Positions 1,307 to 7,881 of a stretch of 7,881 bases of DNA are shown piece after piece. Origin of the DNA: Opitutales bacterium (lineage in GTDB: Bacteria; Verrucomicrobiota; Verrucomicrobiia; Opitutales; UBA9783); the NCBI GenBank assembly GCA_024407725.1, contig JAKSVZ010000023.1:1-7881 (forward strand), given 5' to 3'. The position numbers and the translations under genes were made by a program. The notes beneath the pieces were generated by a model. The model had not been told where the DNA came from, did not search any database, and saw only the letters and a list, made by a program, of their open reading frames with translations. How positions within the stretch are numbered: the stretch's first letter is position 1; every line of letters begins with the position of its first letter.

Positions 1307-1742
1307 GAGCTTCCGTTGGCTCATTGCGCAAAGCTTTTAAAAAGGTATGCCACGCTAAGGTAGCGCATTTGACGCGCATGGGGAATTTGCGAACCCCCAT
1401 TAACGCTTCTAATTCATCCAAATGGTCGGGAAGTGCTGCATTTGGGTCGTTTAATGCCTGTAGCACTTGATTAGCATCTGCTTCAGCTTGAGCGGTTGAT
1501 TTTCCCTGCAAGCGCAAGGTCATGATCGACGCTGATGCTTTGCAAATAGCGCATCCTTGGCCGGTAAAACTGACTGTTTCTAACGTTCCTTCTTTGTTAA
1601 GCAATAAATAGACGGAAATTTCGTCGCCGCAGGTAGGATTAACCCCATACGCTTTGTTGGTGGGATGTTCGATCGCATAAAAGTTGTTCGGATTCTCGTT
1701 GTGAGCCAACAGTACCTCTTGGTAGATTTCAAGCGTGTTCAT
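1272..1742 (-). CDS. sufU: SufU-type Fe-S cluster assembly sulfur-transfer protein (IscU/NifU-like)
   Basis: 156 aa. It has the three SufU ligand cysteine contexts NPTCGDEI, GQGCAICKASAS and RVKCATLAW, with the long insertion between the second and third Cys. Its ATG overlaps the sufS stop (ATGA at 1739-1742). The C-terminal tail is unusual: KCCCCSNPNA. Confidence 0.85.
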   Translation of the reverse strand: MNTLEIYQEVLLAHNENPNNFYAIEHPTNKAYGVNPTCGDEISVYLLLNKEGTLETVSFTGQGCAICKASASIMTLRLQGKSTAQAEADANQVLQALNDPNAALPDHLDELEALMGVRKFPMRVKCATLAWHTFLKALRNEPTEAPKCCCCSNPNA

Positions 1743-2974
1743 TTCCTAAAAAACTTTAAGGTTCGTTCAATGGATTGTGCCAAACGGTCTACATCTTCGC
1801 AGGTATTATAAATCCCAAAGGAAGCCCGCAAAACCCCTCCGTTTAAGCATTGTAGGCGGCGAATCAAGGGTTGACTGCAATGGTAACCGCCGCGTATCGC
1901 AACATTATCGTCGCTCATCAATTGCGCTGCGTCGTGCGGATGTACACCATTCAAAATAAAGGGTACGACCGCTGTTCGGTGTTTAGGGTTACCTAAAACC
2001 TGCACTTGCGGGATGGATTTGAGGGTTTTTTCGGTATAGCGAATGACGGAATCTTCGTAAGCTGTGATGGCGTCCCATGAAAACTGTTGTAGGTAATCGA
2101 TTGCGGATCCCATCCCGATGATATCGGCAATGGGCGGTGTACCTGCTTCGAAGCGGAACGGAACATCGGCTGGGGTAAATCCTTCTGCTGTTACCTGTTG
2201 CATCATGGTTCCTCCGCCGTGATAGGGGGGTAGGGTTTCAAGCAAGGCTTGCTTTCCGTAAAAAAATCCAGAACCGGTCGGCCCATACATTTTGTGCCCC
2301 GATGCGACCAAGAAATCGCAATCCAAGTTGCGAACTGAAATCGGTAGGTGCGCGATGGTTTGAGCTGCATCGACAACCACCAGCGTTCCGTTAGCATGGG
2401 CGCGTGCAATGATGGCCTTCATATCCGGCGTGGTTCCTAAGACATTGGATACATGCGTTAGGGTTAACAGCTTGGTTTTTGGCGTTAACAGCCGATCGAG
2501 CGTTGCGAGTTCCAACTCACCTTCTGCATTGATAGGGAACAGTTTTACCTTAATTCCCCGCTTATATTGCTGTATCTGCCAAGGAATTAAGTTGGAATGA
2601 TGCTCCAGCTCGGATACAATCACTTCATCGTCCGGCTTAAAATAGCGTTGGCCGATAATTTCTGCGAGGCAATTGAGTGCTTCGGTAGCGCCGCGGGTAA
2701 ATACAATTTCGTTTGGCGAAGCGGCGTCGATAAAACGAGCTACGCGTGTTCTTACCCCCTCATAAGCTTCGGTTGAACGTTCGCCCCATGTATAGAAGCT
2801 GCGATGTACGTTGGCGTTATAATGAAGGTAAAAATCAGTAATGGCATCAATAACCGACTGGGGCTTTTGGGTTGTTGCCGAATTATCTAGATAAGCAATC
2901 GGTTGGTTTTTCGAATTGCAATACGCTAGCGCAGGAAAATCCTTGCGGATTTTATGGATATCCAAAGGCTGCAT
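1739..2974 (-). CDS. sufS: Cysteine desulfurase, SufS family (class V PLP aminotransferase)
   Basis: 411 aa. PLP-lysine motif VASGHKMYGPTGSGFFYGK and catalytic cysteine loop RGGYHCSQPL, both close to E. coli SufS as I remember it. It sits immediately upstream of sufU and is translationally coupled to it. Confidence 0.9.
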   Translation of the reverse strand: MQPLDIHKIRKDFPALAYCNSKNQPIAYLDNSATTQKPQSVIDAITDFYLHYNANVHRSFYTWGERSTEAYEGVRTRVARFIDAASPNEIVFTRGATEALNCLAEIIGQRYFKPDDEVIVSELEHHSNLIPWQIQQYKRGIKVKLFPINAEGELELATLDRLLTPKTKLLTLTHVSNVLGTTPDMKAIIARAHANGTLVVVDAAQTIAHLPISVRNLDCDFLVASGHKMYGPTGSGFFYGKQALLETLPPYHGGGTMMQQVTAEGFTPADVPFRFEAGTPPIADIIGMGSAIDYLQQFSWDAITAYEDSVIRYTEKTLKSIPQVQVLGNPKHRTAVVPFILNGVHPHDAAQLMSDDNVAIRGGYHCSQPLIRRLQCLNGGVLRASFGIYNTCEDVDRLAQSIERTLKFFRK

Positions 2975-3213: not shown

Positions 3214-3468
3214 ATGATAGATACGATTGCAGGAATTGTTGCATTTGTTACAACCATGATTGGGGTGGTGCCTCAAATGATTAAAGGGTACCGTACGAAA
3301 TCCATGAAAGATGTATCCTTAGTGATGCTCTTGAATTGTTTGCTTTGTTGTATTGCGTGGCTTGTCCATGGACTATGCGTTGCAGATTATACCCTCGTGT
3401 GGAGCGAAGTGTTTTGTACCATCACCACGATTATCGTGCTCATTCAAAAGCATCAATATGCTCATTGA
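3214..3468 (+). CDS. SemiSWEET / PQ-loop family small membrane transporter (3 TM)
   Basis: 84 aa with three hydrophobic segments. The PQ motif context TTMIGVVPQMIKGYRTKSMKDVSL and the TM2 AWLVHGL resemble bacterial SemiSWEETs as I remember them. The stop TGA (3466-3468) overlaps the downstream ATG (3458) by 11 nt. Confidence 0.7.
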   Translation: MIDTIAGIVAFVTTMIGVVPQMIKGYRTKSMKDVSLVMLLNCLLCCIAWLVHGLCVADYTLVWSEVFCTITTIIVLIQKHQYAH

Positions 3469-4116: not shown

Positions 4117-4965
4117 TTAGAACGTCCGTCCTACGCCCAAATAGATTTGGTCGGAATGGAAATTCGCCAACTTCGGAATTTCATACCCATAACATTTAGC
4201 ACCAAACATCTGGTGTAATCCGATATGGCGATAACCAACCTCAAACAAGGTTTCAAATTTTTCAGCGCGTACAAACAGACTAAAATTGTACAGCAACGAG
4301 CCGGAATGGACGTACTTACGGTTGCCGCTGATAAGGTCGGTAACCGTAACGCCATTTAATCGCCAATATTCCAAAGTAGTAAACTTGGTACAGACATAAG
4401 CGCCACCGATACCACCGCCGATACCGACTGATAACCAATCTAATATATACTGTTCCCAATAGATATTAGCCTGTGCTCCCGCAATGCGTTGATTTTTAAG
4501 AAAACATGCTCCAATATTAATGCTTCGTATCTGATGCCCAGCTTGATCTCGTATAAGACGACGTTTTTGAAAAGCAAAATCGGGGCGATAAGGCATCATA
4601 ACATTATTCCAATTTGAATCCTCACGTTTGCGGTTCTTTACACTGACATAAGCGCCTAATATTTCTATTTCTAATCCTAAAGCTCCTGTATCGAACACAT
4701 CAAACCGTCCGCCTAAAGCAACCGATAAATTACGGTGATTGCTATATGGAATTTTACCTGATGTACACTCATTGTTTCGTACTATGCAGGGATTTACTAA
4801 GCCAACGGTATTCGGGTAGTTACTGTCCCCTTTACTAAACGTTCCCCAATCATCCCCCTTCAGCTCACCAAACCCCGACCGTACCATGACGTACAAACCA
4901 TAACAGGGGGTATGTATACCTAGCGTTAATGCTAGGGCTAATAATAAACTTATTCTTTTAGTCAT
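4117..4965 (-). CDS. Outer-membrane beta-barrel protein, paralog 1 (OMP_b-brl/Opa-OmpA-like class; exact family not recognised)
   Basis: 282 aa. N-terminal signal peptide MTKRISLLLALALTLGIHTPCYG. Alternating-hydrophobic strands, a glycine-rich GIGGGIGGAY segment, and a C-terminal YLGVGRTF ending in Phe, the typical OMP/BAM signature. Strong paralogy with 6842-7810. Confidence 0.75.
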   Translation of the reverse strand: MTKRISLLLALALTLGIHTPCYGLYVMVRSGFGELKGDDWGTFSKGDSNYPNTVGLVNPCIVRNNECTSGKIPYSNHRNLSVALGGRFDVFDTGALGLEIEILGAYVSVKNRKREDSNWNNVMMPYRPDFAFQKRRLIRDQAGHQIRSINIGACFLKNQRIAGAQANIYWEQYILDWLSVGIGGGIGGAYVCTKFTTLEYWRLNGVTVTDLISGNRKYVHSGSLLYNFSLFVRAEKFETLFEVGYRHIGLHQMFGAKCYGYEIPKLANFHSDQIYLGVGRTF

Positions 4966-5022
4966 TTCCTTATAAGGCGTTTCCTTATAAGGCGTTTCCT
5001 TATAAGGCGTTTCCTTATAAGA
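4963..5022 (-). repeat. Four tandem 15-nt units; the last unit contains the paralog 1 start codon
   Basis: In gene sense the units read TCTTATAAGGAAACG, CCTTATAAGGAAACG, CCTTATAAGGAAACG, CCTTATAAGGAAATG. The last unit differs from consensus only by ACG->ATG. Each unit holds the perfect 10-nt palindrome CCTTATAAGG (9/10 in the distal unit). Confidence 0.95.
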
Positions 5023-5050
5023 TTTTGGGCATTTTTGTGGAAAATCAAGC

Positions 5051-5070
5051 TTTTTTTTTGGGGGTGGGGT
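5051..5070. repeat. Homopolymer block T9 G5 T G4 in the divergent intergenic region
   Basis: Read directly: T9 at 5051-5059, G5 at 5060-5064, T at 5065, G4 at 5066-5069. In paralog 1 sense this reads CCCCACCCCCAAAAAAAAA immediately upstream of a -35-like TTGATT (plus strand 5043-5048). Confidence 0.9.
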
Positions 5071-5089
5071 AGAAGCTACGCCGCTTCTA
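5070..5089. other. Inverted repeat TAGAAGC-TACGCC-GCTTCTA (7-bp stem, 6-nt loop)
   Basis: The arms are exact reverse complements. It abuts the G/T homopolymer block. No U-run follows on either strand, so its function is unknown. Confidence 0.3.
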
Positions 5090-5215
5090 TGGCTAACGGA
5101 TGGGTTAGCAAGGTTCCATTAAGGCAATACGTTCGATCGATAAAGCTTCTTTCATTTTTACTTGCTAGGTATCCGATAGGATGCAAGGATAATACTACTT
5201 AGCGAGGGGCGAGCC

Positions 5216-6767: not shown

Positions 6768-6773
6768 CGGGAC

Positions 6774-6805
6774 AAAAATAAAAAATCCGACAAACCTGTG
6801 TCCGA
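6774..6805 (-). terminator. Candidate intrinsic terminator for paralog 2
   Basis: In minus sense: UCGGACA-CAGGUU-UGUCGGA (7-position stem with one G:G mismatch) followed directly by UUUUUUAUUUUU. The stem is weak, hence the low confidence. Confidence 0.35.
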
Positions 6806-6815
6806 CTTGAAAGGC

Positions 6816-6832
6816 AAGGGGACATACCCCTT
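6816..6832. other. GC-rich hairpin AAGGGG-ACATA-CCCCTT in the convergent intergenic region
   Basis: Exact 6-bp stem, starting 9 nt after the paralog 2 stop in minus sense. No adjacent U-run on either strand. Possibly a 3' UTR stabiliser or part of a bidirectional stop. Confidence 0.3.
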
Positions 6833-6841
6833 CAATAGTGC

Positions 6842-7810
6842 TTAGAACGTCCGACCTACGCCCAAATAGATTTGGTCGGAATGCATACTGGCCAACTTCG
6901 GGATTTCGTACCCGTAGCATTTTGCACCAAACATCTGATGCAAGCCGATATGGCGATAGCCGACTTCGAATAGCGTCTCAAACTTTTCTGCGCGTACAAA
7001 CAGGGTGAAGTTATACAACAATGAGCCGGAATGGACGTACTTACTCCTTCTTATCGGATTATTACCATAACCATACCACATAAAGTGCCGATGGCCGGTA
7101 GGATCAACGCCTATATCCAATACACGCCATCTTTCAAAGGTAGTAAATTTGGTGCAAACATAAGCGCCGCCAAGTCCTCCGCCGATCCCTGCGGATAACC
7201 AATCCAAAATATACTGTTCCCAATAAAAATTGGCCTGTATCCCTGCAATTCGTTGATTTTTTAGATACATTGGAACAATATGAGCCATATGTAACATTCC
7301 CCAATCCGTATATTGCACCCTAAGGAAATCTGGGCGTTCTATATTGATATGATCCATATCATCATAATTGAGTTGAGGCCCTGCTAAGTGAGGTTCAACC
7401 CTATCGCGTTGTTTTCTCCCTAAATTGGCATAGCCGCCGAGGATTTCCACTTCGATCCCTAAAGCCCCTATATCGAAGATATCAAAACGTCCACCGAGCG
7501 CTACCGATAGGTTTTTGTGACCCTTGTACTCAAAGCGTCCTGCGCTACAATTGGTATTGCGTACAAAAGTATTCGATGGGCTAAAAACCACAGTATCTGG
7601 ATCTTCGTGATGGGCACGCGGATCAATCCATTCGGTAGCCTCCCACGTTGGCAACGTACCTTGTTGTTTTTCGAAGCTACCGATATCACCATCTGGCTTT
7701 AGCTCGCCAAAACCACTACGTACCATGACGTACAGACCATAACAGGGGGTGTGGATTCCTAAAGCAATGCTTAGGGCTAATAAAATGCTTACTTTTTTAG
7801 TTGTTCTCAT
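6842..7810 (-). CDS. Outer-membrane beta-barrel protein, paralog 2
   Basis: 322 aa. Signal peptide MRTTKKVSILLALSIALGIHTPCYG. The N-terminal GLYVMVRSGFGELK, the central NLSVALGGRFD, KNQRIAG.QAN.YWEQYILDWLS.GIGGG.GGAYVCTKFTT, and the last 66 aa (63/66 identical) are shared with paralog 1. C-terminal GVGRTF. Confidence 0.75.
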   Translation of the reverse strand: MRTTKKVSILLALSIALGIHTPCYGLYVMVRSGFGELKPDGDIGSFEKQQGTLPTWEATEWIDPRAHHEDPDTVVFSPSNTFVRNTNCSAGRFEYKGHKNLSVALGGRFDIFDIGALGIEVEILGGYANLGRKQRDRVEPHLAGPQLNYDDMDHINIERPDFLRVQYTDWGMLHMAHIVPMYLKNQRIAGIQANFYWEQYILDWLSAGIGGGLGGAYVCTKFTTFERWRVLDIGVDPTGHRHFMWYGYGNNPIRRSKYVHSGSLLYNFTLFVRAEKFETLFEVGYRHIGLHQMFGAKCYGYEIPKLASMHSDQIYLGVGRTF

Positions 7811-7881
7811 ATAAGAAGTACCTATGTAAGAAGTACCTATGTAAGAAGTACCTATGTAAGAAGTACCTATGTAAGAAGTAC
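7804..7881 (-). repeat. At least four perfect tandem 15-nt units plus a degenerate unit containing the paralog 2 start codon; truncated by the window end
   Basis: The plus-strand unit TACCTATGTAAGAAG sits at 7819, 7834, 7849 and 7864, all identical, and a fifth begins at 7879. In gene sense the unit is CTTCTTACATAGGTA. The start-containing unit CTTCTTATATGAGAA (7818->7804) matches it at 11/15. Confidence 0.95.

Follow-up and report, generated by a model that had tools for sequence, protein, structure and literature searches.

The window analysed here, 7881 bp in length, is an entire contig (JAKSVZ010000023.1, locus tags MJ218_) of a metagenome-assembled genome (MAG) of an uncultured Opitutales bacterium from gut or rumen. 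Its minus strand carries two related genes, paralog 1 and paralog 2, the second of which is predicted to encode an outer-membrane β-barrel, and each gene begins within a tandem array of 15-nt units. The array of paralog 2, which runs to the end of the contig, is the element in question; that of paralog 1 is of the type here called canonical. The features concerned, with unit sequences given in gene sense, are these:

6842-7810, minus strand: paralog 2 gene, 322 aa, with signal peptide MRTTKKVSILLALSIALGIHTPCYG and C-terminal Phe, a predicted outer-membrane β-barrel
7804-7818, minus strand: start unit CTTCTTATATGAGAA of paralog 2, an 11/15 match to CTTCTTACATAGGTA, holding the ATG (7810-7808)
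7819-7881, minus strand: upstream array of paralog 2, four exact CTTCTTACATAGGTA units (7819-7878, that is 7819-7833, 7834-7848, 7849-7863 and 7864-7878) and a truncated unit
4117-4965, minus strand: paralog 1 gene, 282 aa, of the same family, 56% identical to paralog 2
4962-5021, minus strand: canonical array of paralog 1, three units CTTATAAGGAAACGC and start unit CTTATAAGGAAATGA (ATG 4965-4963)
5022-5069, minus strand: promoter-like block of paralog 1, directly upstream of the array, from an alignment of eight loci and L017

Tandem Repeats Finder reports the paralog-2 repeat as a period-15 array of 4.7 copies and 100% identity (7812-7881) that reaches the last base, with bases 7879-7881 (GTA) as the cut-off fifth upstream unit at the contig end. 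The assembly thus ends inside the array, of which the window shows only a part. An earlier note on this DNA had claimed at least four identical units running off the window edge and an array that continues into the first codons of the gene; the repeat finder and the match count confirm the former, and the start unit, with its 11 matching positions and its ATG, bears out the latter. Matches to CTTCTTACATAGGTA with three or fewer mismatches have a chance expectation of 0.14 per window, and five such matches were found in 0 of 200 shuffles. Each upstream unit has ATA as its triplet in phase with the ATG, and a Shine-Dalgarno (SD)-like AGGT stands 9 nt ahead of each ATA, at the same distance as that ahead of the real ATG; this spacing, too, had been read correctly from the sequence. 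The in-phase frame, which encodes TSYIG repeats, is free of stops up to the contig end, as had also been noted, and it is because of this open frame that the NCBI annotation extends paralog 2 across the repeat, as a 'partial' protein of 345 aa. At 7804-7881, then, a perfect tandem repeat overlaps the ATG of a gene for a predicted surface-exposed barrel, as is expected of a contingency locus.

For comparison, 17 related loci (82.8 kb of fetched DNA, referred to below by L numbers) were recovered; protein-guided genome and metagenome scans gave 5 and 2 loci, respectively. The paralog-2 unit has no match in these 17 loci and none in viral contigs, and the peptides that it encodes in all four open frames have 0 matches among 5.8 billion proteins. 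Exact-protein look-ups of window genes, made for the upstream flank of paralog 2, returned nothing or gene-length NCBI records (GCA_024500515.1) without flanks. The records of that assembly (JALNLU01...; L001, L009 and L010) are exactly gene-length, at 849, 957 and 987 bp, and are identical to MJ218 genes.

When the start regions are aligned, paralog 2 (CTTATATGAGAACAACTAAAAAAG) and the canonical genes (CTTATAAGGAAATGACTAAAAGAG) are colinear. The paralog-2 start unit aligns with the canonical family start CTTATAAGGAAATGACTAAAAG, with the canonical ATG replaced by ACA; a new in-frame ATG lies 6 nt upstream of the one that was lost, at the position of the former TAAGG box, and the SD-like AGGT comes from the preceding repeat unit. 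In L011 (7775-7795) the last array unit reads CTTATGAGGAAATGA, with an A-to-G change that disrupts the palindrome of the canonical unit and makes a three-codon upstream open reading frame (ATG AGG AAA TGA) that overlaps with the real ATG. The start of paralog 2 (CTTATATGAGAAC...) appears to be derived from such a state, with an upstream ATG of this L011 type turned into the in-frame start. Elsewhere in the window, the start of the NifU/SufU-like gene (TTTAGGAAATG; 1740-1765, minus strand) shares the context AGGAAATG with the canonical outer-membrane protein (OMP) starts, which suggests that a very short spacing between SD box and ATG is normal in this organism; several other genes of the window have no SD-like box.

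The paralog-2 product has the attributes of an outer-membrane barrel, namely an N-terminal signal sequence, a C-terminal aromatic residue and an all-β model, and is predicted to be one. The AlphaFold2 model is an all-β barrel with a predicted local distance difference test score (pLDDT) of 84.4 and a predicted template modelling score (pTM) of 0.77, and its best Foldseek matches in the PDB are all outer-membrane barrels (OmpA, Ail, OmpX, NspA and Legionella porins), at low TM-scores of 0.2-0.36. Neither paralog has a sequence match in Pfam, NCBIfam or the PDB. A homology search gave 62 relatives, at least 14 of them in the same MAG and the others from metagenome assemblies, at least some of whose source samples are presumably ruminant: we take PRJEB21624 to be a cow-rumen project and, with less assurance, AUXO01 to be perhaps a sheep-rumen set. 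An exhaustive profile search of 1.84 billion cluster representatives returned 15 clusters only, implying that the family is private to its clade. The alignment of this cysteine-rich family shows a signal peptide, a C-terminal ...GRTF and several conserved Cys residues, and in it invariant blocks corresponding to the strand regions alternate with hypervariable, indel-rich segments corresponding to the loops.

Identity between paralogs of the same genome is distributed as a mosaic. Their 3′ ends are 96-98% identical, synonymous sites included, and their loops 30-50%; at the other end of the gene, codons 16-30 of paralog 2 (window 6842-7810) share 98% nucleotide identity with L009 and L010 of the same MAG, 14 of the 15 codons being identical. 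The leader and the first eight codons lie outside this tract of near-identity. To judge from these alignments the pattern resembles gene conversion, and it would be that expected of a variable surface-protein family with recombinational exchange. On a syntenic cow-rumen contig (L013, 8124-8244) the DUF5131 gene is followed by that for leucyl-tRNA synthetase, without the paralog 2 that the window has there (6768-6842), implying that related genomes differ here by an insertion, a duplication or a loss. The closest relative of paralog 2 (70%; P0002/L011) lies at another locus, adjoining ffh, with an array of the canonical type. The numbering of the locus tags (MJ218_03920 on this contig) suggests that the genome of the MAG is small, and a reduced-genome Opitutales family, UBA9783 (<1 Mb), has been described from the farm-animal gut (PMC12306168). 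A search for an association with rumen ciliates gave nothing specific to the MJ218 MAG. Among the remaining genes of the window, the listed 247-aa thiamin pyrophosphokinase reading frame overlaps a SemiSWEET-like gene of 84 aa (3353-3468); its real start is probably the ATG near 3455 (MLIDLERYK...), which would give a short overlap.

Canonical family genes begin with a common arrangement, ...A-tract-GCTTGCAA-~15 nt-CA(N)AAT-CTTATAAGGAAATGACTAAAAG..., and in almost every close family member a 15-nt array occupies the same place, from the promoter-like block to the ATG. In every array the stretch that has been multiplied in tandem is the one with the SD-like TAAGGA box and the start codon. The loci compare as follows:

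Paralog 1 of the window: four units of ...ACGC
L003: four units
L009, another paralog of the same MAG: at least four units of CTTATAAGGAAATGA, cut by the contig end
L011, L012 and L016: five units each
L013: seven units
L014: three units of CTTATAAGGAAAAGC
L015: three units of ...ACAC
L002: contig ends inside the array
L004, a close family member: single-copy, no array
L017, positional orthologue of the L014 gene in a more distant species: single-copy, no array
Distant family members (40% identity): no array

The unit count across loci thus runs from 1 to 7 (or more), and tandem arrays scoring above 80 in the 82.8 kb of fetched DNA are only 15-mers at the 5′ ends of family genes. The earlier note had described paralog 2 as another paralog whose 15-nt unit differs but is arranged alike; we find the same, and this arrangement proves to be general in the gene family. 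Units are 97-100% identical inside an array and different between loci, implying that the arrays expand and contract locally.

Differences in unit number are also seen between otherwise matching loci. L015 and L016, which come from different samples, encode an identical 285-aa protein (P0030) and have identical aligned flanks; the sole difference between them is a clean 30-nt, two-unit indel, which leaves three units in the former and five in the latter. The orthologous locus adjacent to LpxI and DUF5131 has four units in the window and seven in L013, with flanks of 91% nucleotide identity and an OMP gene that is only ~70% identical. A repeat-number difference between near-identical genomes is therefore on record for canonical family arrays, in the L015/L016 pair, and the paralog-2 array is known in one copy. 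The location of family arrays at contig breaks (paralog 2 of the window, L002 and L009) is only suggestive, a hint at high-frequency unit change within populations.

Are the arrays transcribed? In gene sense, the block upstream of the paralog-1 array consists of C/A homopolymer tracts, GCTTG(A/C)..., some 15 nt and then CAAAAT, which abuts the first unit. Across the family it takes the form A-tract, GCTTGCAA, N15, CAnAAT, resembling TTGCAA-N15-CANAAT; its counterpart in paralog 2 falls beyond the contig end. The distance from the block to the first unit is fixed and that to the ATG varies, from ~12 to 102 nt. The array always lies downstream of this conserved block, which favours its transcription, and a promoter within the block would transcribe it as a 5′ leader. 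The plus-strand 'terminators' that a sigma-70 consensus scan places at 4968-4992 and 4983-5007 are merely palindromic units. The triplet of upstream units that is in phase with the ATG is ACG, ACA, AAG or ATA, and is ATG in L009 only. Such loss of upstream ATGs fits a pressure against upstream initiation, which would be relevant only if the array is in the mRNA. In seven of the nine complete loci there is an in-frame stop and no ATG, GTG or TTG ahead of the canonical ATG, implying that the arrays are not ordinary coding repeats.

The homopolymer tracts (poly-C of 8-11, poly-A of 6-9) lie directly upstream of the GCTTGCAA box (window 5051-5069) and at the same position in L003, L004, L012 and L015-L017; their length varies between loci, L015 and L016 being equal in this respect, and they could be a second hypermutable site. 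Some 40-90 nt upstream, several paralogs have in common a segment ...GCCATAGAAGCGGC(A/G)TAGCT(C/T)CTAC-polyC-polyA, which is found at 5060-5100 of the window (minus sense) and also upstream in L003, L012, L015, L016 and L017. In L012 a complete tRNA-Ser-like gene stands immediately ahead of this segment; in its place L003, L015 and L016 have just the 3′ part of one (GGTTCGAATCC...CCGCCA). Paralog cassettes seem to have been copied together with the promoter block and a tRNA 3′ fragment, a hint at how the family spread.

The canonical unit consists of a perfect 10-bp palindrome, CCTTATAAGG, and a 5-nt spacer, and of random 15-mers 1.5% contain a Watson-Crick palindrome of 10 nt. The hairpin model of the canonical unit involves the CCUUAUAAGG pairing, and canonical leaders take the predicted form of long nested rods: the paralog-1 leader folds at -26 kcal/mol (z -4.9; opposite strand -28.1 kcal/mol, z -3.7) and that of L013 at -48 kcal/mol (z -7.6), and only 3.5% of shuffled-unit arrays fold equally well. 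For paralog 2, the earlier note had proposed 8-bp stems containing G:U pairs, with 7-nt loops, on the sense strand only. These stems (AGGUACUU) are indeed present in the minimum-energy structure of the sense RNA, at -17.4 kcal/mol compared with -11.5 for the antisense. The note had further taken the asymmetry between strands as an argument for a role at the RNA level, and here it does not stand: the paralog-2 fold has a z of -1.5 and is equalled in 14 of 200 shuffles, an 8-nt palindrome that tolerates G:U pairs turns up in 26.5% of random 15-mers, and a fold as good or better is reached by 47% of shuffled-unit arrays. Nor is the asymmetry a feature of the family, since the canonical 10-bp palindrome folds equally on both strands. 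Pairing of the leader beyond chance is thus seen in the canonical arrays (z -4.9 to -7.6), as against the z of -1.5 for paralog 2. In a covariance scan of the window with Rfam only tRNA-Gln passes its gathering score, and no known RNA family is found at the arrays. A suhB/mmgR match lying antisense over the paralog-1 array (4990-5066, plus strand) scores 24 bits (E = 0.14), short of the gathering score of 41; it was treated as chance, and is most likely caused by the palindromic repeats.

What, then, might an array in this position do? We favour, with somewhat more belief than doubt, the view that it is a slippage-prone 15-bp variable-number tandem repeat in the leader, which tunes the expression of individual surface-barrel paralogs. 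A 15-bp minisatellite would have been born by tandem duplication of the translation-initiation region (SD-like box and start codon) of one family member, and would be transcribed as a 5′ leader, downstream of the promoter-like block. Replication slippage would gain or lose 15-nt units with the reading frame kept, and a change of unit number may alter the translation or survival of that one paralog's mRNA, by way of leader length, the number of decoy SD-like sites or, in canonical arrays, hairpins over the ribosome-binding site. Sub-populations would in consequence display different amounts of each variable surface protein. The paralog-2 unit is diverged and no longer has the strong palindrome, and the likely effectors there would be the repeated AGGU boxes and the length of the leader, not a defined RNA fold. 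The hallmarks of surface antigens, namely a barrel model, hypervariable loops, mosaic paralogs and at least 14 paralogs in a probably small genome, support this view. The anatomy of the arrays, their recurrence across the family and their polymorphism are directly observed, and from these we infer that the array is transcribed and that it affects expression.

Several considerations weigh on the other side. Both the regulatory effect and the transcription of the array are deductions from DNA sequence, and the sigma-70 consensus scan calls no promoter upstream of paralog 1, its silence at the block being due to the 15-nt spacer. The inclusion of paralog 2 in the mechanism is founded on position, period and start-unit homology, its upstream region being beyond the contig and its unit occurring nowhere else. 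A 15-nt unit present in 3-7 copies should slip less often than the classical contingency repeats of 1-7 nt. The unit-number differences come from short-read assemblies and may partly reflect collapsed repeats, although MEGAHIT k127/k141 contigs resolve arrays of 45-105 nt internally. Finally, L004, a close member, and L017, a sister-species gene, function with single-copy starts, so that the array is not required.

The dispensability of the arrays, which are also lacking in distant members, would be expected if they were a neutral by-product, the palindromic, microhomology-flanked start region being prone to duplication and slippage and the extra leader units being harmless, with no regulatory role. 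The 97-100% identity of units within an array suggests that the arrays are young, the unit sequence differs between paralog 2 and the others, and the paralog-2 fold is no better than chance, all of which a neutral origin would accommodate. It accounts less readily for the recurrence of arrays in almost all close members of the family and their absence from the rest of the 82.8 kb, or for a period that is always 15, a multiple of three, across three unit types. Upstream ATGs have, moreover, been lost by several different substitutions, and the substitutions that distinguish the canonical unit types sit in the 5-nt spacer, sparing the 10-bp palindrome. We regard a neutral origin as possible and worth taking seriously, yet on this evidence rather unlikely.

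The folding of the canonical arrays raises a more specific idea. The predicted cost of opening the region from -12 to +13 around the AUG alternates between ~12 and ~6 kcal/mol with each added canonical unit; in paralog 2 it alternates weakly, ~10 compared with 8 kcal/mol. Canonical arrays might accordingly be odd/even RNA switches, in which self-complementary boxes, each also covering the ribosome-binding site, pair with one another. In one parity all boxes would be paired, that at the start codon included; in the other a leftover box would let the ribosome-binding site open. We hold this to be improbable; which parity counts as 'closed' depends on the position of the transcription start. If it were true, a single 15-nt slippage step would toggle translation with frame and promoter untouched, and the switch would apply mainly to the canonical paralogs and not to paralog 2.

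The same palindrome could instead act at the level of DNA, as operator- or iteron-like sites for a dimeric protein, as multiplied -10-like boxes (TATAAG) or as a cruciform, with the number of units setting transcription. The canonical unit is a perfect palindrome of 10 bp on DNA, with its chance expectation of 1.5%, and folds equally on both strands; it contains TATAAG, and in L017 the spacing TATAAG-N6-ATG would suit a leaderless start. The paralog-2 unit does not have the canonical palindrome sequence, however, and on DNA possesses only a 4-bp GTAC core, making a common binding protein unlikely. The 15-bp spacing corresponds to 1.5 helical turns and would place successive sites on opposite faces, and no regulator gene is linked in any of the loci examined. 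A DNA-level element thus appears quite improbable.

Less probable still is a translated repeat, in which the true start of paralog 2 would lie upstream, beyond the contig end, or at a near-cognate ATA, giving a size-variable (TSYIG)n extension at the N-terminus. No stop interrupts the frame across the array up to the contig end, AGGT precedes the ATA of each unit by 9 nt, and L009 keeps an in-frame ATG in every unit. An open frame over a 15-nt unit is, however, ~79% probable by chance ((61/64)^5), and the signal peptide begins right after the array; for a signal peptide to be preceded by a long hydrophilic stretch would be atypical. In seven of the nine complete loci the stop and the missing upstream start codons led us to reject translation of the canonical arrays; N-terminally extended products from ATA, which the earlier note had raised, are unlikely on the same grounds and because the corresponding triplet elsewhere is ACG, ACA or AAG. 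That the terminal repeat is an assembly artefact, a de Bruijn-graph loop or a chimeric contig end as its place at the contig end and those of L002 and L009 might suggest, we find barely credible, given that arrays homologous to it occur within long contigs of independent origin, both in sample and in assembler (k127, k141, NODE and scaffold records), that a diverged copy, the start unit, is joined to a real reading frame, and that contig breaks are expected wherever a tandem array exceeds the k-mer length or is heterogeneous.

Taking the repeats as a tuning device in the leader, the closest known system in logic is Neisseria opa, and in position hmw of Haemophilus influenzae. The opa genes form a multigene family of small outer-membrane barrels with conserved strands and hypervariable loops, each paralog having its own 5′ repeat of CTCTT. 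The family described here is likewise one of small, variable barrels in which every paralog bears a tandem repeat of its own at the 5′ extremity and can therefore vary independently, and Foldseek places the paralog-2 model among barrels of the Ail, OmpX, NspA and OpcA type. There is no detectable sequence homology between opa and paralogs 1 and 2, and the repeats themselves differ markedly. The opa unit is 5 nt long and lies inside the region coding for the signal peptide, where slippage shifts the frame and turns the gene ON or OFF; the unit here is 15 nt long and lies upstream of, or overlaps, the ATG, so that no frameshift is possible and an opa-type frameshift switch is not what we find.

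In H. influenzae, hmw1A and hmw2A carry a 7-nt repeat, (ATCTTTC)n, that is transcribed in the 5′ untranslated region (UTR), takes part in a long leader hairpin and gives graded levels of expression (PMC12721329; PMC8262952). The present arrays share with it a repeat of variable copy number between the promoter, here only promoter-like, and the start codon of a surface-protein gene, and the canonical arrays also fold into long leader hairpins. In hmw, however, the pairing partner of the 7-nt unit is a separate G-rich arm and expression is RNase III-dependent, whereas the 15-nt unit is itself a copy of the ribosome-binding and start region, canonical units find their partners in each other, and the pairing in paralog 2 is not significant. 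Other repeats that tune or gate the expression of surface proteins are (AGAT)n in the 5′ UTR of Moraxella catarrhalis uspA2 and (GAA)n of Mycoplasma gallisepticum vlhA, the latter across a large multigene family. As in our family, these repeats precede the coding region of a gene for a variable surface protein; they differ in having units of 3-4 nt and no duplication of the start region, they belong to other phyla, and their mechanisms have been established experimentally. The uspA2 repeat is mentioned in PMC8895709.

The design that emerges is unusual: what is repeated is the translation start region itself, in units whose length is divisible by three. The effect of variation would therefore be exerted in the leader, with translation either graded or dependent on parity, and would involve neither frameshift nor promoter spacing. 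There is also a practical side, since the arrays break short-read assemblies and cause start codons to be mis-annotated, as in the 345-aa 'partial' and 352-aa proteins.

We know of no description of repeat-mediated variation of surface-protein expression in the Verrucomicrobiota, and if the arrays do tune expression they would constitute the first contingency-locus-like system described in that phylum. A gut or rumen lineage with a probably small genome would then be reserving 14 or more genes for a single private family of variable surface barrels, which would point to strong pressure from phage, protist grazers, host or partner cells.

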